DNA of 64,000 bases from IMG/VR virus record IMGVR_UViG_3300021356_000007, positions 1-64,000 of that record; one strand, 5' to 3'. Shown one piece after another: positions 13,022-42,949 of this stretch. Made by a program: the position numbers and the translations under genes. How positions within the stretch are numbered: position 1 is the first letter of the stretch; every line of letters starts with the position of its first letter. The notes beneath the pieces are model-generated. The model did not search any database. It saw nothing but the letters and a program-made list of their open reading frames with translations, and was not told the origin of the DNA. Origin of the DNA: a virus.

Positions 13022-16000
13022 TCAGGTATGGAACACGGCTTTGTCTGAAGTTATCTCTAAAGTACCCTCTTCAGTAGGGATTGTAATATTCTTTTCATCC
13101 TCGCTGTCCTTCGATTTTGGTTCAATGTAAGAATCTTCACCGGGTCGCTTTCTGTTGTCAAAGTCGGGCATTGTCTTCTCATCGTGCAAGTTAGTAGGTC
13201 CAAGTGGGGATTCTACAGGAGTAGCATAATCAATTCCTAGTCCCTTTGCACCTGCATTAGAACCTCCTACAGAACCAGCACCACTCTTCAAGAATCTATC
13301 AATCAGCATCAATCCCTTGACGAGTATTTTCTTTTTCTCTTTCTCTTTCCACCAATTTGTGCCTTCTTCTTTGTGAGGTTCAATAAGTGGTTCTGCATCT
13401 CCTTGTGACTCATGTACCTCTTCTTTTTCTGTGATGTGTAAGTTAGCCTTGAGCATAGCACCTGCTATTGGACTCCAGTATTGTCTCTGACTTTCTGCTA
13501 ACCTAACTAGATACTTACTGTCAGCCAAAGGTGAATGAACAGTCCACATACTACCTGTCTGTGTACACTTGTAGAGTACATCACCTTGAGGCATGACTAC
13601 TCTAACTCCTGACTTAGCCCTATGAACTTCGCATAGCCACTGGTCTTCAGACTTAGCAAGCAGACCAAGTGTCTCTCTACTAACAAGACCTTCGCCCTCT
13701 GCTTCTCCTAATATCTTAGAAGCAGTCAAAGTATAAACATCGTCACCGCCAGTAGTTTCAACTTTACTGACATTGGCAGCATTAACCATTACATGGTCGC
13801 CTTCATTGTATTTTTCTTCACTGTTGAATGCCACCCCTACATCCATGTAGATTTCACCGTCAGACTCTACAGCCCTATTACCTATCTCTTCTTCTCTTGT
13901 TATTGGACCTGTGCCTAGCCTGTATGTGTACGGACCACTGCCTCTACGCTCTAGTACTCTCAGCACTACATCGTTACCCGGTTTCAGCATAACCCACTTA
14001 GGGTGTCTGAGTTCGCCAACCATGTATACTGACTTAGCATCTCTAAGTAGTAAATTCTCATGCGTTTCGCTTAAATTTTCGACAATGGCTTTGAGGCCTT
14101 CATCATCTGTCAGTCTCGTATCGCTTGCACTTGGAACATGTATATTCTCTACTCCTTCCAAAGCACCTCTTACTATTTTGATACGGTCATTCAATACGAC
14201 ATCGTGGACTTCCTTTTCAGCAAACTCTATGACATCAAAGATGTAGTAGCCCTCTTCTGTCTTGATTACATCAGCAGTAAAGTCTTCATCAGTCACTTTC
14301 TTGAAGTTCTCTTTGTCTTCATCACTCAAATCAAATGTCTTGGAAGATACTTCGTCATCTTCTTTCTTGACAAACCCACGCTCGCCTTCAGGCATGTGGG
14401 ACACTATCCAGTCACCTGTAAAACCTCTCAACTCTTCCAAGTCATCTAGTTCAAAGATACGATGCATTGGTTGTAAGATAGGGACTTCGCTACCCAATTC
14501 TTTTCTGAGAATGTCAGGGTTAGTCAAATCAGCCAAACCTATGTCCGACTTCCTTACGCTGTGTACATCCGTGTTTCTCGCTATACCAAATCGCCCCGGT
14601 CTATCATTTGCAGCCATTCTGTCAGGTCTTAATAAAAGTTGACGAGACTGTTCATGGTCGGGATGTCTAAGCATTTCTAGCCACTCAGGTGGGGCTACTG
14701 CATCCCAAAACTTTCCTAAAATGTTGACAAGTGGCTGCTTGTTACTTTCGCCTTCTGCTACTGGTACAACATTGACATTACCATTTCTTGATATTTTGAA
14801 TTTGAAATTAGGTTCGAAGAAGTCACCGAACTCATGTCTGTAGCCAGCAGAATTGTACAGGCTGTGAACTGAGTGAGTGTGAGGACTAAATTGGTCTGCT
14901 GGCACTGCGGTAAAGGCATCAACTGTTTCTTTGACTTTTGCAGGGGGCTCTATTTCAGGGAAGCCTACTATTAGAGAATCCAAGTACTGCTTAGTATTCC
15001 AGTACCTACTGTGATGCTTGTTCTTGTGTTTACTCTGTGCCGTCTTCTTCCTATCATAGAGGGGTTGCCCTTCGTCAGTCAACTCTCTTACTCTACGGTC
15101 ATCCTCGTTGTAGGCATTTTGGTAATGTACGCCGAGTCTTTCATTGAGGTGACTGAAAGCAGGGTTGGTGATTCTTCTTGTCATACCTTGAACTATGTTA
15201 GCAAACTCATCATCTCTGCTAGTTTTGTGATGGTGTCTTACCTTTTCATGTCTACCATCTATATCCATCTCAGGGTCTGTAGCCTGCAAATACTGCCTCA
15301 TTGTCATAATCGGCATTTTGTAATCCATACCATATTGCTCGAATCTAGGTTGGAAAACATCTTTGATTAAATCGTGTAGATTTTTCTGATGTGGTATACT
15401 CTCAGGGTCCAACCCTAGTTTTTCTAACGCAGTAGGCATGTCAAGTATATCGGCTATATTGAACTCAGTACCTTTTTCGTGAACCATCCTTTTCATGTTA
15501 GCCATGTCGTCAACTTTAGTTTGGTTACCAGTTTGGTCTATACGGGCGTGACCCTTGGTGTAAATACCGTGTTGTTCGTGTGGCACTTTCAGCAAGTAGT
15601 CATTAGCCATGTTAGCAAACATTCTCATGTTAGCCTCAGCAGTTTCGTGGTCTAAATTAGGATTGAAAATGTAATCGTGTACTTCAGGTGCTGTGTTAGC
15701 CAGCATTTGTTTCAGATGGACCATAGCACTCTTGATAGCGTCAGTATCTGCTCTCAGTTTGTTTTCTAATATGGTGTCATGACCTTGTTTAGAATATCTT
15801 AGTCCTTTAGTAGAAAGCGGGTCAATTTTGTCTTCTAGTTCATCTAATAATCTTTGCTTATCCGCTATCAATTTGTGAACTTTAAACTCGTCCTCACCAC
15901 TCAAACCCCCTTCTTCTAGTTGAGCCTCAAGCATACTTATGTTCGCTATTTCTTCTTCGTACAAAGCAAGTTCATCACTTGGAGGTCTAGCCTCGGATAT

Positions 16001-18811
16001 TTGACGAGTTACAGAACCAGCAGGATTTAGAGTAGGTTCTACACCAAATTCCTTAGTAGGACTGTGTCCTGCTAATCCAAATCTATTGTCAAGACGCTCT
16101 AGCCTTCGATTATATTCATTTACTACTCTGTCGATTTCTTCTCTCTTCCTATCTTCGTCAGGCACAGCATTAGCCCTTGACATGGCTGATTCGTAATCCC
16201 TTTCGATTTTGTCTAACTCTGTTTGTTTAACTTCCTCTATATCCCCTTGCCTAACAGGGCTATACCTAAGTTGTAAAATCTTGTCCAGTGGGTTTTCACC
16301 TCCTACAGTATGTTTGGCTCTAGGATTCTTTAGATTCATCACATCCTGCTGAGGGTACATAGGATTCATCCTCATACCAAGTTTAGTACCTATAGTATGA
16401 TAGGAATGAGTTCTATGACTTTGCATAGGTTCAGGATTAAGAGCCCCACCTCTACCTGTGTAAGAATGTGCTACTCTCAAAACACCGTTACCTTGTAATT
16501 TCTTGTGAGCCCTGTCTGCCTTATTACTATCCCCTGACCTTCTCGCTGCGTGGTAATCATCGTGAACCATGTTGTTAAACGCAGAATCTACAGTTTGAGC
16601 ATGTCTAGCATAGTGGGCGTTTTGACCTCCGCTACCCTTGACACTACTTGACATGATGACATTGTGAGGTTTGAGATTCTGAGGTGCATCAAGTGGGCTA
16701 CCTCTAACAGTAGTAGTGATAAGTTTACCACTGCCCTTTTCTTTCTGTTGACTCATGCTCATTTCTCTTTGACCGAATGGTGCAAGTGCATTGAGAACTT
16801 TGTAATCGTCAGCCGATTGTATAGCACCTGTTTGTAAATCGTAATCGTGTCTAGGCTCTATTTGGGCTCTAGTCCTTGAAAACCAAAGGCTGTTTTCTTT
16901 GGGACTAAAGATACTACCTTTGTATCTACCCTCTATATCTTGTTCGAATTCTGAACCTAATTCTGACCTTACATATTCTTCTAATTCTTCATCAGGTACT
17001 AAACCTTTGAACCTATCTTTCAGTTCCTCTAGTTTGTCTGCCCTTTCCTTGTCCTCTTTTTCACTGTAAAGTAAACTGTGATGGTGTATCAAATTGTACA
17101 AGTCGTTGGCATCTTTACCAAGCCCTCCGTGACCCTTGAATGGCTTTTGCCAGTGAGTCGCAAGTGTCTCGTGGTCGTCTAGGTAATCGTAATGGTCGGG
17201 ATGCATAGCATAACCATAATGTATAGAGGAATGGTTCTGAGCCATTCTGCCAGCATTAGCCACACGCATAGACTCAGTTTTCCTAGCATCCATTATCGAA
17301 TCCACTTCTTCTTGTGTGAACTCGCCTCCATCCCAAAGTTGTCCGTAAAACGGATGTTGACCTTTAGGATAGATGTTACCGTCAGGGTCCAGTCCTAACA
17401 TAAATCTCAAAGCGTTGTAATTAGGGTAGTAATCCTCTCTTTGGTCTTTAACCATATCATGCCTAAGCATGGAATCAATACCGTGATTATCAGGGGAATA
17501 ATCTATCTGAGGTACTTGTCTTTCAGTAAGAGGTTCGTAACGACCTGCACTATTAGTAGCGTAGTGGTGCTGTTCCATCATTTTGTTGAAATGAGCCACA
17601 GACCTCTGCCAAGCGTTTTTGTCTTTACCCATAGGCTGATGATTTAGTAACGCTTCATAGTTGAAACCGGGCGAAGGCTCATCCCCCTCTTCTGACATAC
17701 CTATAGGTGTGATGAGCATACCATGTCCCGGTCTGTCAGGGTCTCTTGTCCAGTGGTCGTGAAGTCCTGAAAACCTCTGTTGGATATTTCTGATAACCCT
17801 AGGTATCAAATTAGGGTTACCTGAGTACCTATCTACTCTGAACATCCTGTCAGGATTGTAGCCGTTTTCTTGTACATGTCTATAGAATCTGTCTTTTTCT
17901 TCAGGGGTAAACCACTCTAATCCATGAAAGTAGTCCATGAACCCTAAGTTCTCTTTCCAGTATTGCTTCTTTTCATTGATGTGAGCCAACTTGATAGCGT
18001 GGTCTATTTCTTCATCACTCCTACCTTCTTGCTTCATTTGATTAGTGATTTCATCCACCTTAGATGTGTTGTCACCTAGCCAATTTTGATAATCTCTAAG
18101 ATAGAAAGCATGGTTAGTTGCACCCATCACATTACCTGACAAATCTTCGTCAACTGCTAATTGACCGTAGTGAAATTGATTTCTCAAAAAGTCGTGCTGT
18201 TTGTCATCTCTAACCCAGTTTTCCCACCTTGCCTCTTTATGATGGTCCTTTTCGCTTTGAGATGTAGCGGTGTGGTCTGTAGGGTGTACATAGAAGTCAC
18301 CCACTATATTGTGGTACTCACCATGTAAGGGATTCAAGTCAGAGCCTAGATAATCGTGGTCTGCATAAACATCATGCGGGTCTTGATTGTTAGGTTCTAA
18401 TTTCCAAGGAAGCCCTGCTACAGTTTGTCCCATAGGTGGAGGGGTTATTCTGTGTTCCTGATAACTAGGATTATCACTCAACTCCATACCACTGCCAAAC
18501 CTAAGCATGTCAGACATTTGTGCTTCATCGAGTCCTTGTGCCGATTCAAAGCCTTGTCCCTCTGTACTCAAATCGTAATTACCTGAAGGACCTGTGACTT
18601 CTTGGCTCTTCATAAGAAGAACAGAGTTGAACATTTTCAGAAGGGCTTGGTCTTCTTGACTAAGAACATATCCTCTCCTTTCTGCACTAATTGCTGAGAA
18701 ATAAAACTCAGCACCAGCGTCTAATTTACCTATGCCGTCATTAAGAGACTTTACGAATGTAGAACGGTGTCTATCGAGCGTATCTAATGGCCCTTCTCTC
18801 ATCAGCATCAC
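13022..18811 (-). CDS. Very large head-module protein with a C-terminal degenerate ATP-dependent DNA ligase-like (adenylation + OB) region
   Basis: WIVSHMPEGER (motif I-like), YYIFDVIEF...LNDRIKIV (IIIa), ENLLLRDAKSVYMVG...KWVMLKP (IV/V-like); His-rich unknown N-terminal ~1400 aa. Confidence 0.75.
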   Translation of the reverse strand: MMLMREGPLDTLDRHRSTFVKSLNDGIGKLDAGAEFYFSAISAERRGYVLSQEDQALLKMFNSVLLMKSQEVTGPSGNYDLSTEGQGFESAQGLDEAQMSDMLRFGSGMELSDNPSYQEHRITPPPMGQTVAGLPWKLEPNNQDPHDVYADHDYLGSDLNPLHGEYHNIVGDFYVHPTDHTATSQSEKDHHKEARWENWVRDDKQHDFLRNQFHYGQLAVDEDLSGNVMGATNHAFYLRDYQNWLGDNTSKVDEITNQMKQEGRSDEEIDHAIKLAHINEKKQYWKENLGFMDYFHGLEWFTPEEKDRFYRHVQENGYNPDRMFRVDRYSGNPNLIPRVIRNIQQRFSGLHDHWTRDPDRPGHGMLITPIGMSEEGDEPSPGFNYEALLNHQPMGKDKNAWQRSVAHFNKMMEQHHYATNSAGRYEPLTERQVPQIDYSPDNHGIDSMLRHDMVKDQREDYYPNYNALRFMLGLDPDGNIYPKGQHPFYGQLWDGGEFTQEEVDSIMDARKTESMRVANAGRMAQNHSSIHYGYAMHPDHYDYLDDHETLATHWQKPFKGHGGLGKDANDLYNLIHHHSLLYSEKEDKERADKLEELKDRFKGLVPDEELEEYVRSELGSEFEQDIEGRYKGSIFSPKENSLWFSRTRAQIEPRHDYDLQTGAIQSADDYKVLNALAPFGQREMSMSQQKEKGSGKLITTTVRGSPLDAPQNLKPHNVIMSSSVKGSGGQNAHYARHAQTVDSAFNNMVHDDYHAARRSGDSNKADRAHKKLQGNGVLRVAHSYTGRGGALNPEPMQSHRTHSYHTIGTKLGMRMNPMYPQQDVMNLKNPRAKHTVGGENPLDKILQLRYSPVRQGDIEEVKQTELDKIERDYESAMSRANAVPDEDRKREEIDRVVNEYNRRLERLDNRFGLAGHSPTKEFGVEPTLNPAGSVTRQISEARPPSDELALYEEEIANISMLEAQLEEGGLSGEDEFKVHKLIADKQRLLDELEDKIDPLSTKGLRYSKQGHDTILENKLRADTDAIKSAMVHLKQMLANTAPEVHDYIFNPNLDHETAEANMRMFANMANDYLLKVPHEQHGIYTKGHARIDQTGNQTKVDDMANMKRMVHEKGTEFNIADILDMPTALEKLGLDPESIPHQKNLHDLIKDVFQPRFEQYGMDYKMPIMTMRQYLQATDPEMDIDGRHEKVRHHHKTSRDDEFANIVQGMTRRITNPAFSHLNERLGVHYQNAYNEDDRRVRELTDEGQPLYDRKKTAQSKHKNKHHSRYWNTKQYLDSLIVGFPEIEPPAKVKETVDAFTAVPADQFSPHTHSVHSLYNSAGYRHEFGDFFEPNFKFKISRNGNVNVVPVAEGESNKQPLVNILGKFWDAVAPPEWLEMLRHPDHEQSRQLLLRPDRMAANDRPGRFGIARNTDVHSVRKSDIGLADLTNPDILRKELGSEVPILQPMHRIFELDDLEELRGFTGDWIVSHMPEGERGFVKKEDDEVSSKTFDLSDEDKENFKKVTDEDFTADVIKTEEGYYIFDVIEFAEKEVHDVVLNDRIKIVRGALEGVENIHVPSASDTRLTDDEGLKAIVENLSETHENLLLRDAKSVYMVGELRHPKWVMLKPGNDVVLRVLERRGSGPYTYRLGTGPITREEEIGNRAVESDGEIYMDVGVAFNSEEKYNEGDHVMVNAANVSKVETTGGDDVYTLTASKILGEAEGEGLVSRETLGLLAKSEDQWLCEVHRAKSGVRVVMPQGDVLYKCTQTGSMWTVHSPLADSKYLVRLAESQRQYWSPIAGAMLKANLHITEKEEVHESQGDAEPLIEPHKEEGTNWWKEKEKKKILVKGLMLIDRFLKSGAGSVGGSNAGAKGLGIDYATPVESPLGPTNLHDEKTMPDFDNRKRPGEDSYIEPKSKDSEDEKNITIPTEEGTLEITSDKAVFHT

Positions 18812-38389: not shown

Positions 38390-39243
38390 GAGGTGGGGAT
38401 AGCGAGACCACTAAAAAAAGTGTTGATTGATTTTGCAAAGTCAGTTGCTTTCCCCAGCATCTTCTCGTCTACCCCTGTTTCAAAGCCCCAAGCGTGTAGA
38501 TGGCTGACAAGAAGGGCAGTATCAAGATTAGCCCCGCTGCCCTCTGCGAAGGGACAACCACCCAATCCCCCGATGCTAGAATCAAATTGCCTGATACCGG
38601 AAAATAAGCCAGCCCTAACAAGCCTGATTGCCTGTTCTTCTGAGCCTTTATGGTGCAAATGCAGAGCCGGAGTTAGGTCTTCTTCGTATACAATAGAAGC
38701 CCAGTCCTTTACCTCTTGCTCAGTCGCAGCACCAACCGTATCGCTGAGAACTACAGTAGAGCCTAGCATCTTCGCATCTCTGATGCAAGACTTGATTTCT
38801 GACTCAGAAAAACTACCGCTATATGGACTACCAAACGCCATGCTTATGTATACCCTAACTAAATCCTTGGGGTAAGCGTTGAGCATCGTCTTGTACATCA
38901 GAACAATTTCGCTTCGAGTCTTACCCATGTTCTTCAGGTTGAATGTCTCACAAGGGCTGAACACGATGTTGATGTAGTCCATACCTAAATCCATAGCCCT
39001 GTCAAAGCCCCTCTGATTCATGACAAGCCCAGCACCTATGCCAGTCCAAACTTCCTCTGCATCAGCCATCTGCGGCAAGATTTTCGGGTGAGCGAAACTG
39101 ACTTCCTCAATCTCAGTCAGCCCGCTGTCATACAGAAGCCCTATGAGTTTCTGTTTGTCAGAGGTAGGGACAAAGTGCTTGATGTATTGCAACCCATCTC
39201 TAGGACCAACTTCGTAGACTGTGATTTTCATAAGACCGTTCAT
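38386..39243 (-). CDS. hmgL: Hydroxymethylglutaryl-CoA lyase (DRE-TIM metallolyase)
   Basis: YEVGPRDGLQ, EEVSFAHPK..PQMAD, LSDTVG, ALHLH, FDSSIGGLGGCPFAEGSGANLDT. Confidence 0.9.
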   Translation of the reverse strand: MNGLMKITVYEVGPRDGLQYIKHFVPTSDKQKLIGLLYDSGLTEIEEVSFAHPKILPQMADAEEVWTGIGAGLVMNQRGFDRAMDLGMDYINIVFSPCETFNLKNMGKTRSEIVLMYKTMLNAYPKDLVRVYISMAFGSPYSGSFSESEIKSCIRDAKMLGSTVVLSDTVGAATEQEVKDWASIVYEEDLTPALHLHHKGSEEQAIRLVRAGLFSGIRQFDSSIGGLGGCPFAEGSGANLDTALLVSHLHAWGFETGVDEKMLGKATDFAKSINTFFSGLAIPTS

Positions 39244-39368
39244 ACGAGTCCGGTGTAGAAATTAAACTTGTTGGTGATTACTCAAGTAGAAAAACTAGCG
39301 GGCTCTTTGGTATACCAAATTTTCTGTAAAATTTTTTTTGTTGGAACGCCGTGTGCGGTTAAAGGAGG

Positions 39369-39729
39369 CTAAACTCCCGTCTAAACTCCATCCCTCCGTC
39401 TAAACTCAGCCGTCTAAACTGCCGTCTAAACCGCAGTCCCCCAGTCTATAGACCGTATCACAGCGAGCCCGTCTAAACTCCAGTCGCTCGTAGGCGTACC
39501 TCTCGTATGTCATGCGTACCGTTGGTATTCGAAAGGGGCATTGGTGTCCATGTGAGCGAGCCAGCCCACACACTAATCGGGGTACTGCGAGCCAGTCGAG
39601 TACCAGTGGGCGGGCTGGTACTCGTGGGTAGGTGGTGGGGCGTGGGGAGTACCTCCCTCAACCCACGCATATGGGTGGTACATATTGCCCATTACCATAC
39701 TTACACGCCTAAACCCCATGTGTCTAAAC
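39369..39729 (+). repeat. Cluster of short direct repeats: five CCGTCTAAAC, eight CTAAAC cores in total
   Basis: CCGTCTAAAC at 39377, 39396, 39410, 39422, 39469; extra CTAAAC at 39369, 39709, 39724. Confidence 0.9.
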
Positions 39730-39766
39730 GCACGCATATGATTCCTCTGCTAACTGGAAAACGATG

Positions 39767-39810
39767 GACTGAGCCGAACTGGTTATAAAGACCCAACAAA
39801 GGAGATGTTC
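39767..39810 (+). promoter_or_regulatory. Early promoter copy 1
   Basis: GAACTGGTTATAAAGACCCAACAAAGGAGATG; TATA box at 39783. Confidence 0.8.
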
Positions 39811-39933
39811 GCCGAAAACGGCAGTCAACAACCACCTCCCCTCCCCTCCTCGACACATGGGGTGGGGCAGTACACCCTCATGGTGTACTACGGTGGTGTA
39901 CTCGAATGGTTTCGAGTGCATCAGGGTGGTTGT
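39811..39933 (+). ncRNA. Candidate ~125-nt four-way-junction RNA
   Basis: Between promoter copies 1 and 2; 10-bp closing stem enclosing three hairpins with G-U pairs (see findings). Confidence 0.6.
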
Positions 39934-39960
39934 ATATATCCTGCTAAATGATAACCGACT

Positions 39961-40004
39961 GACTGAACAGAACTGGTTATAAAAACCCAACAAAGGATAT
40001 GACT
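39961..40004 (+). promoter_or_regulatory. Early promoter copy 2
   Basis: GAACTGGTTATAAAAACCCAACAAAGGATATG; TATA at 39977; followed by TGCCGAAATCGGCA hairpin like copy 1. Confidence 0.8.
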
Positions 40005-40047
40005 GCCGAAATCGGCAACCAAAACAAAACAAAAAGGAGAGATACAA

Positions 40048-40698
40048 ATGAGTAATAAACACACAATGGAACAACTGAAAGTAACAGGGGTAGCAATACC
40101 TGTGCAATTCAACGCTTGCACAGAGTTAATGAGGCAACATGTAAATGCCAAAGGTAGTGCGAAACTTGCGCTACCTATACAACCTGACGCTTTTGAGAAC
40201 GGTAGGCTTGAATGGGATGACAAGATGAACGACTTTACTAAGGCTGACATCCACAGAGGTCTTGCGGCTATCGTGAAACTGGGTCAAGAACTGAACATAA
40301 CAAATGCAAACGGACTACCAACCGCAGGTAAGGCTGTCGGTTCAAAGGCTATCCTAAGCAGTTACCACACACCTACAAGAGGCAAGAACATAGGCAAGAG
40401 ATTCTTCAACATCTTGATTGTATGGCAGAAGATTAAGCAAGCAGAGAAAGCCAACGCTAACATGCAGGCTCTTGAGGTTGCTAAGAAATTCGGTATGCAA
40501 GTCTATGTCGAAACAGTCACACTGAAAGACGGTTCGCACAGAGCATTCACTGACATCAAGAAAGCAATGGGTGCATATTGCAGACAAAACTTTGGTAATG
40601 AATGGCACAATTCGCCTAACAAAAGATTGTATCAGGCTGAAGCAATGGGTGCTATCATGTCTGCTGATGACGAAAGAATCGTTCACCCACAAGAGTGA
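40048..40698 (+). CDS. First early protein, basic, unknown function
   Basis: AGGAGAG SD, 216 aa, directly behind promoter copy 2. Confidence 0.8.
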   Translation: MSNKHTMEQLKVTGVAIPVQFNACTELMRQHVNAKGSAKLALPIQPDAFENGRLEWDDKMNDFTKADIHRGLAAIVKLGQELNITNANGLPTAGKAVGSKAILSSYHTPTRGKNIGKRFFNILIVWQKIKQAEKANANMQALEVAKKFGMQVYVETVTLKDGSHRAFTDIKKAMGAYCRQNFGNEWHNSPNKRLYQAEAMGAIMSADDERIVHPQE

Positions 40699-40722
40699 AC
40701 CTATCAAACTCATACAGAAGTA

Positions 40723-41065
40723 GTACGGCGTTATGCCGAGACCAACGATTCCCCAGCGGGGAGGGGTAGTAACAATATCCCCCGCATCACATTCCACTGG
40801 AGAGAGAATGCTGACGGGCATGGTGGCGACTGAGGTGTAAGATACCTTATCTCGAAACATCTATCTGTAACACGACCAAAGAATTCGGTCAGTGTTGAAA
40901 ACCGAGGACAACATACGCAAGTATCGAGTCGCCTGTTAGCAGACGGGAATGAACTAATCTCGTAGCGGTGAGAGATAATTGACCGCCGACTGGGTGCGAT
41001 GCCCAGTTATATTCGTGGTTGCTACCCTTCTTGGAAAATAAAGCCACACCCTCGGAGAGCCGTAT
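40723..41065 (+). ncRNA. Candidate ~345-nt structured RNA
   Basis: GC-rich island lacking a credible plus-strand ORF; nested long-range helices with G-U wobbles and a GCAA tetraloop (see findings). Confidence 0.6.
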
Positions 41066-41116
41066 GCAACCAGCATCCTCCACCTACCCACGGCATTTCA
41101 TTATCACATTCCACCA

Positions 41117-41143
41117 GCCTCTTACCTGTAAGGTAATCGAGGC
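41117..41143 (+). terminator. Stem-loop at 3' side of candidate RNA
   Basis: GCCTC-TTACCT/GTA/AGGTAA-TC-GAGGC. Confidence 0.4.
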
Positions 41144-41149
41144 ACTGCT

Positions 41150-41290
41150 AAGAAGTAGTAAGAAATAGTATAGTAATAATACAATTAATACAATATATAC
41201 AACATACTACTTTACTTTATTATAATATTAGGGGCTTACCATATTGTTGTATATTATATTCCGAACATTGAATACATTGAATTAACCATA
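41150..41290. other. Extremely AT-rich intergenic tract
   Basis: Runs such as AATAGTATAGTAATAATACAATTAATACAATATATAC; inverted repeat ATATACAACA/TGTTGTATAT. Confidence 0.7.
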
Positions 41291-41307
41291 AAAAGGAGAC
41301 TGAAAGC

Positions 41308-42045
41308 ATGACGATAGCATTTGTGAAAGGACAAAGAGCAAGAGGAAAGAGACTGATACTAACTGGCGATGCAATAGTAAGACAGTTACATGAACTAGCC
41401 GAGGATATAATCTACCATGATGTAGATGAATACAATAACTTGGGTGACGAATGCCGTGTGCCTCCTGACTATGCCGAGGCTTGTATGCTAGTAGACAATC
41501 TCAGGATAGTCACACAGAAGTTCCAAAAGATAACAGATAAGATTAGCAGGTGGGGCTATCAAAAATACTACGCTCAATCATACAAAGAAGGGAGTACCTT
41601 GAGAGAGATAGATGGCTTCGGACTTGAAGACTGGGAGTCCGAGTATCAAGAGAAAGCACACAGGTGCATGGGCAAAATACAGGAGAAGTTCGACACACTC
41701 ATGGACACAATCAAGAACCTTGAGCCCAGTGACTTGCACGATTCTATTTCCTTTTTCGACCAAAGTTATCAAGCAAGTAGCGGGAGATGGGAATACGAAT
41801 CAACGAAAGTAGTCATTGTCAAAGGGTTCGATGACTTTGGTATCGAGGACAACAGAACACGCTACAAAGATATGACACTCAAAGAAATGCATGACGCACA
41901 AGAGCAAGCGTACTGGGATAGCCTCTCCGATGCACAGAAGCAGAAGGAAGAGGAGTACGCTAAACCTGACATCACATACATGAGAGAGAACGGCTACACT
42001 TCCTTCGCATGTAATGACAACGGTACAATATCCTACTGGAGATGA
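41308..42045 (+). CDS. Early hypothetical protein
   Basis: AGGAGA SD, 245 aa. Confidence 0.75.
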   Translation: MTIAFVKGQRARGKRLILTGDAIVRQLHELAEDIIYHDVDEYNNLGDECRVPPDYAEACMLVDNLRIVTQKFQKITDKISRWGYQKYYAQSYKEGSTLREIDGFGLEDWESEYQEKAHRCMGKIQEKFDTLMDTIKNLEPSDLHDSISFFDQSYQASSGRWEYESTKVVIVKGFDDFGIEDNRTRYKDMTLKEMHDAQEQAYWDSLSDAQKQKEEEYAKPDITYMRENGYTSFACNDNGTISYWR

Positions 42046-42905: not shown

Positions 42906-42949
42906 GACTGGATAGAACTGGTTATAAAGAAACAATAAAGAAGATGAAC
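42906..42949 (+). promoter_or_regulatory. Early promoter copy 3
   Basis: GAACTGGTTATAAAGAAACAATAAAGAAGATG; TATA at 42922. Confidence 0.8.

Follow-up and report, generated by a model that had tools for sequence, protein, structure and literature searches.

At the left end of T7, the first early gene is preceded by a terminal repeat, the tandem early promoters A1-A3, and a hairpin processed by RNase III (R0.3). In the packaging RNA (pRNA) of phi29, three helices meet at a junction, and rings form through two complementary loops; the phi29 packaging motor works without a terminase. The tRNA cloverleaf has a 7-bp acceptor stem, 5-bp anticodon and T arms, and conserved D and T loops. In archaea, transcription canonically starts approximately 25 nt downstream of the TATA box, and in the bulge-helix-bulge processing site, 4 bp separate two 3-nt bulges that lie on opposite strands. 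In the surface ocean, magroviruses rank among the most abundant viruses of archaea. To our knowledge, neither magroviruses nor their hosts have been cultured. Linear, terminally redundant genomes of approximately 100 kb have been described for the group A magroviruses of Marine Group II (PMC5434244). In this study, we analysed a structured element at positions 39811-39933 of a viral genome, which an initial annotation had described as a novel non-coding RNA with a four-way junction. All coordinates refer to the window, i.e., the first 64 kb (64,000 nt) of the 91.9-kb IMG/VR record IMGVR_UViG_3300021356_000007, which is 89% complete.

The late genes (terminase, portal, and giant proteins) point leftwards from 39243, and the early and replication genes point rightwards from 40048. 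The element is located in the 805-nt divergent gap, between the two promoters P1 (39777) and P2 (39971). The replication genes are of archaeal type and include a thermosome subunit (E 6e-130), the RFC small subunit, a Hef/XPF nuclease, and an SNF2 helicase; the family B polymerase (PolB) is closest to those of haloviruses. A large terminase and a portal protein are encoded in the same genome. The genome is that of a ~92-kb magrovirus-like archaeal tailed virus, and its gene content matches that of group A magroviruses. The first late gene, in the 39243-39290 region, is an HMG-CoA lyase homologue (NF004283, E 2e-63). In the close relatives L008-L010, an extra, variable late-strand gene (~1700-2200), with an 'AW' motif at the N-terminus of its product, is inserted between the HMG-CoA-lyase-like gene and the regulatory region. 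Two giant late proteins of 1929 aa and at least 2194 aa are encoded at 13022-18811 of the window (- strand) and at G000 85213-91797 (- strand), respectively; they matched no PHROG or Pfam family, barring one sub-threshold match to a ligase domain.

An iteron block at 39362-39482 (repeat families D2 and D4, without strand assignment) is composed of CCGTCTAAAC-type repeats, and two further iteron cores are present at 39706-39730. Within the window, CCGTCTAAAC-type iterons are distributed over 39348-39660; clade-dependent variants are CGTGTAAAC and GGGTAAAC. Four related contigs (L123, L124, L126, and L130) stop 170-310 nt past a conserved motif at 39348, and a fifth, L115, starts inside the region of this motif. 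Because contigs break there and terminal redundancy has been reported for magroviruses, the iteron block is probably within the direct terminal repeat, at the end of a linear genome. The element would then be located approximately 270-400 nt from the terminal repeat. P1, the first promoter on the early strand, would stand approximately 400 nt from the left end, as inferred from assembly breaks rather than mapped ends. The early-strand position of P1 agrees with the initial assignment of the element to the first early transcript. A conserved palindrome, TCTATAGA (39444-39453), is found where the four contigs end and the fifth begins. Within 450 nt (39451-39900), there are 10 copies of the palindromic tetramer GTAC, compared with 1.8 expected; nowhere else in the genome is this tetramer as dense. 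P1 is bracketed by a perfect 12-nt inverted repeat (39713-39724/39852-39863). This repeat was set aside since approximately 0.2 such repeats are expected by chance and since it is retained through a G-U pair in one relative and broken in another.

P1 (39777-39807, + strand) is a 31-nt motif with a TATA-like TTATAAA box at 39783-89 and an invariant ATG at 39805-07. Its tandem copy P2 (39971-40001, + strand) belongs to an 82-nt duplication (39747-39828 and 39941-40022, 80% identical), which comprises the promoter and hairpin units of both. The 13-nt core at 39777 has seven exact copies in the 91.9-kb genome, compared with approximately 0.003 expected by chance; all are on the + strand and all precede early genes. 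The claim that the element has its own promoter is thus borne out. As expected of an archaeal TATA/BRE promoter, the TATA-like box of P1 is recurrent and keeps a fixed distance from the gene starts downstream of it. A bacterial sigma-70 or phage RNA polymerase promoter was discarded as a reading, given the archaeal gene content. Further copies precede early genes at 42916, 46902, 53269, 58632, and G000 66957. At these copies, the ATG stands 22 nt past the start of the TATA box and is not the start codon of the gene; several of the short ORFs that begin at it terminate at or just before the true, SD-led start. The 5-nt spacer after the TATA box (39790-39794 and 39984-39988) varies between genomes and is the same or nearly the same in P1 and P2 of each. 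In L008-L010 (~2695 and ~2937), the spacers of the two promoters shift in parallel in each genome, and this pattern suggests concerted evolution or gene conversion between P1 and P2. The two promoter copies of the distant relative L122 are likewise almost identical.

Transcription from P1 is predicted to start at approximately 39805-39815. The SD positions at four promoters favour a start at or before the invariant ATG, and the canonical archaeal spacing places it approximately 8 nt further downstream, inside the loop of the 5' hairpin; the exact start of the P1 transcript is therefore uncertain.

The minimum free energy (MFE) fold of 39811-39933 (+ strand) contains every helix that had been drawn beforehand, i.e., a 5' hairpin and a four-way junction. 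The small 5' hairpin (39811-39822, paired as 39811-14/39819-22) has 4 bp and a 4-nt loop; it is adjacent to the promoter and is repeated after P2. The junction (39828-39933, + strand) is closed by a 10-bp stem with one G-U pair (39828-37/39924-33). Arm 1 (39838-46/39859-67) consists of 4 + 4 bp around a U-U mismatch and has a 12-nt loop, which is also the second copy of the inverted repeat that brackets P1. Arm 2 (39869-76/39882-89) has 8 bp, and arm 3 (39894-906/39911-23) has 13 bp, of which two are G-U pairs. The junction linkers measure 0, 1, 4, and 0 nt, within the range of 0-4 nt given at first. The fold has an energy of -66.5 kcal/mol and a z-score of -6.72, with none of the 200 dinucleotide shuffles as good, and the MFE structure accounts for 36% of the ensemble. 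Several GTAC copies lie within the stems of arms 2 and 3.

In line with the initial annotation, the fold matches no known RNA family. Rfam 15 gave no match at the gathering threshold over the 64 kb and, at E<=10 over 39250-41350, a single chance lncRNA match outside the element. ARAGORN found no tRNA or tmRNA in the window, and the stems of 10, 8, 8, and 13 bp have the wrong sizes for tRNA arms, so that the tRNA mimicry proposed initially was abandoned; nothing was found in favour of a Holliday-junction mimic. The element appears to be neither a ligand sensor nor a tRNA-like mimic. A bulge-helix-bulge processing site is absent from the folds of the element, the P1-P2 read-through RNA, and the corresponding segment of the distant relative G003. 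C/D-box and H/ACA sRNAs, k-turns, hammerhead and hairpin ribozymes, and G-quadruplexes were dropped on inspection by eye, their defining boxes being absent. The region had no match among GenBank phages by blastn. IMG/VR scans with the promoter, the neighbouring protein, and the promoter-proximal motif returned nothing or chance matches only, and a GTDB genome scan with the promoter returned 17 single chance matches, all bacterial.

No stretch of four or more T residues occurs from 39805 to 40048; therefore, a transcript from P1 is expected to continue past P2 and into the first early gene. Under this model, the fold would constitute the 5' domain of a long-leader early mRNA, and P2 would yield a short-leader mRNA. 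The P2 hairpin (40005-40016, + strand; inverted repeat I2) is complementary to the region of the P1 hairpin. In the predicted read-through RNA, 39811-26 pairs with 40001-16 with pair probabilities of 0.96-1.0, a thermodynamic prediction only. This long-range helix carries a symmetric 3x3 internal loop and encloses the junction in a larger predicted domain (z -8.8). The first early gene (40048-40698, + strand) is SD-led and encodes a 216-aa basic protein, whose homologues stand behind a structured leader in two other clades. The protein had no match in PHROGs, Pfam, or ESM Atlas, and its AlphaFold model (pLDDT 47) was of too low confidence for use. After this gene, a second non-coding structured region is present at 40715-41150 (-140 kcal/mol; z -3.2 on the + strand and -0.5 on the - strand). 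It diverges by only 1.6-2.5% in close relatives, less than the flanking genes, and has no Rfam match.

The element was compared with that of three close relatives, the metagenome contigs L008, L009, and L010, whose first early proteins are 94-97% identical; a 56%-identical relative, P0003, was left out. The flanks of the element differ by 2-4% from the window. The 3' half of the element has an apparent divergence of 18-22%; it is effectively swapped and is the most variable stretch of the region. The 5' hairpin, closing stem, and arm 1 are retained in all three relatives. Arm 2 is distinct in all three haplotypes and is still paired: between L008 and L009, one G-C pair is changed on both sides to A-U, one C-G to U-G, and one mismatch has been repaired as U-G. 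In place of arm 3, the relatives have a 9-bp hairpin unrelated to it, and the arm 3 of the window resembles a hairpin located outside the junction in the relatives. The junction closes in the relatives as well (z -5.0 and -5.8). In this lineage, arms 2 and 3 are extra, fast-changing inserts in the 3' strand of a core helix, which they convert into a four-way junction; the junction is thus a local elaboration.

Three further clades were retrieved via thermosome-bearing contigs, five long records, a widened protein family, and the conserved DNA motif beside the iterons. In G003, L119, and L121, a single promoter precedes a small hairpin and a long one, the latter C-rich in its 5' strand and G/U-rich in its 3' strand, and a homologue of the first early gene (32% identical) comes directly downstream. 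In L122, a long C-rich/G-rich hairpin (z -4.2) lies between tandem promoters, each of which has its own, differing small hairpin; the first-gene homologue follows. In L128 and L129, a different first gene stands behind a single promoter with its small hairpin and C-rich/G-rich hairpins (z -3.3 and -3.2). The four clades, including that of the window, share almost no sequence at the structured segment. In all four, the structure begins after the promoter, stops before the SD or the next promoter, and has its C-rich strand first. The conserved unit is therefore a small hairpin behind the promoter together with a long helix, C-rich in its 5' strand and G/U-rich in its 3' strand; in the window, this helix is formed by the closing stem and, stacked on it, arm 1. 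Conservation does not extend to the four-way junction, because the close relatives alter or swap two of the three arms and the distant clades have no junction.

The best-supported reading, to which we assign a probability of about 0.5, is that the element is an RNA-level leader domain of the first left-end early transcript in magrovirus-like viruses. The fold would act as RNA and, by analogy with known leaders, most likely as a very stable 5' domain that protects the first early transcript or marks it for processing. With three distinct sequences per clade, the overall comparative support for this structure can be considered moderate. Against the leader reading, the second promoter downstream of the fold in this lineage and in L122 would be odd if the fold served the first gene in cis only.

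A DNA-level element is an unlikely alternative. Here, the GC-rich inverted repeats would serve replication, concatemer processing, or packaging, or would be protein-binding palindromes, with the small hairpins as operators of both left-end promoters. The proximity to the probable terminal repeat fits such a role, as does the 97-99% conservation of the non-coding stretch 39290-39810 among close relatives. The 12-14-nt palindromes are found only at the left-end promoters, at the usual positions of archaeal repressors, and an operator palindrome is an equally good reading of the small hairpin. The strands provide evidence on both sides. The initial annotation had proposed that the G-U pairs work on one strand only. 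This was confirmed as a preference: the reverse strand of the element is weaker by approximately 10 kcal/mol (-56.2 kcal/mol) because three G-U pairs turn into C-A, but it still folds (z -4.06). The preference for the + strand is clear in the window, G003, and L128. It is reversed in L122, where the - strand is better by 9 kcal/mol, and slightly in L129 (3 kcal/mol); the opposite strand thus folds as well or better in these two. In G003, the hairpin folds well on the + strand (-40.8 kcal/mol, z -2.8) and poorly on the other (-28.9 kcal/mol, z +0.4). The helices of the window clade have five distinct G-U positions and no C-A mismatch, and the changes in L009 and L119 preserve pairing only as + strand RNA. 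These observations argue against a DNA-level role, as does the fact that the structure respects transcript boundaries, with its C-rich strand first, in four of four clades.

That the element is a discrete, trans-acting immediate-early RNA (a protein-binding scaffold or, speculatively, a defence decoy or a replication primer), freed by termination or processing, is doubtful. The second promoter, which stands between fold and gene in this lineage and in L122, makes the gene independent of the fold in cis, and L128 and L129 retain the module despite a different downstream gene; both points favour a separate RNA. The 5' leader can, moreover, pair with the sequence flanking P2 and close the whole P1-P2 interval as one domain, which adjoins the iterons and the probable genome end. 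Neither an oligo-T terminator nor a recognisable processing motif was found, however. In two clades, the 5' UTR of the first gene itself contains the fold, and conserved terminal or internal loops that would hint at a specific partner are lacking. The discrete non-coding RNA of the initial annotation is thus not indicated by the sequence, with no T-run terminator between the fold and the first early gene.

An absence of function, with the element as a rearrangement-prone palindromic spacer left between duplicated promoters, is improbable. It would account for the variability of the 3' half relative to its surroundings and for the duplicated 8-mers shared among the arms, which suggest slippage. 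It is also in line with the weak covariation statistics. In the G003 clade, the consensus fold has two compensatory pairs, changed on both sides, with 5 of 90 cells left unpaired, and the observed score was equalled or exceeded in 110 of 500 shuffles. The covariation is suggestive, not significant. The spacer reading does not explain why the same stem closes the junction after at least two rearrangements, or why strong structure occurs at the same place in four clades with almost no common sequence.

A small protein (48 aa; 51 aa in the close relatives) read from the promoter ATG, with the RNA structure incidental, is highly improbable, since conservation of start, frame, and amino acids was not found in the relatives. 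The statement that no SD-led ORF is present holds, but a 48-codon ORF (39805-39951, + strand) opens at the ATG of the P1 motif. Its frame is open in the window and the relatives and has the top codon-usage score (0.08), and five of the six substitutions between L008 and L009 are synonymous in it, compared with 24-33% expected. Among real genes, however, this score falls at the 5th percentile. The window and its 97% identical relatives have unrelated C-terminal halves, homologous bases being read in different frames, and none of the three helix substitutions in the G003 clade is synonymous. L119 is frameshifted, L121 has ATT instead of ATG, and L122 has no ATG there; at five other promoters, the ORFs that begin at the same ATG are short or are not in frame with the gene downstream. 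The ORF was judged a composition artefact, its frame being open because the C-rich and G/U-rich runs contain no stop codons.

A broader proposal is possible, if unlikely: that magrovirus-like viruses share a new immediate-early structured RNA, transcribed from the first promoter of the leading end, which acts alone (as a decoy, scaffold, primer, or R-loop former by the terminal iterons) and has been elaborated by helix insertion. If such a self-acting RNA were confirmed, it would be the first structured non-coding RNA class described for tailed archaeal viruses and would open the subject of archaeal viral non-coding RNAs. Aside from this proposal, the locus provides a left-end layout of terminal iterons, an extended TATA-type early promoter, and a structured leader. 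The candidate RNA motif may be used as a marker of early infection in metatranscriptomes, and it offers a small, testable case of RNA architecture evolving by helix insertion.

Among the described systems, the Rfam four-way junctions (SAM-I, NiCo, and yybP-ykoY riboswitches, and tRNA) share with the element four helices and short linkers. Unlike them, the element has long, regular helices and no conserved internal loops, and its junction is not conserved beyond close relatives. The resemblance to phi29 pRNA is loose: like pRNA, the element would be a left-end RNA of approximately 120-170 nt, driven by an early promoter, with a multi-helix junction that is closed by a 5'/3' helix and is conserved in shape more than in sequence. 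By inspection, no complementary loop pair is common to the window and its relatives, and a large terminase and a probable terminal repeat are present here instead of a protein-primed genome. Like the 5' stabiliser stem-loops of bacterial and phage mRNAs, exemplified by the ompA leader, the small hairpin stands a few nt from the predicted transcript start; it is found in the P1 as well as the P2 leader, and different small hairpins occupy this position in other clades. Unlike these stabilisers, it would meet the archaeal decay machinery (beta-CASP 5'-3' exonucleases), and the long GC-rich helix is unexplained by the analogy. T7 differs in that the host here is archaeal, the promoters are of TATA type, and the fold lies between the promoters rather than after them. 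The likeness to T7 is one of layout, and RNase III is not known to act here. Within this layout, a hairpin lies in the interval from the left-end early promoters to the first gene in both systems, and the order of parts is the same: a terminal repeat (a probable one here) that carries arrays of short repeats, strong early promoters in tandem, an irregular, stable hairpin in the leader, and the first early gene.
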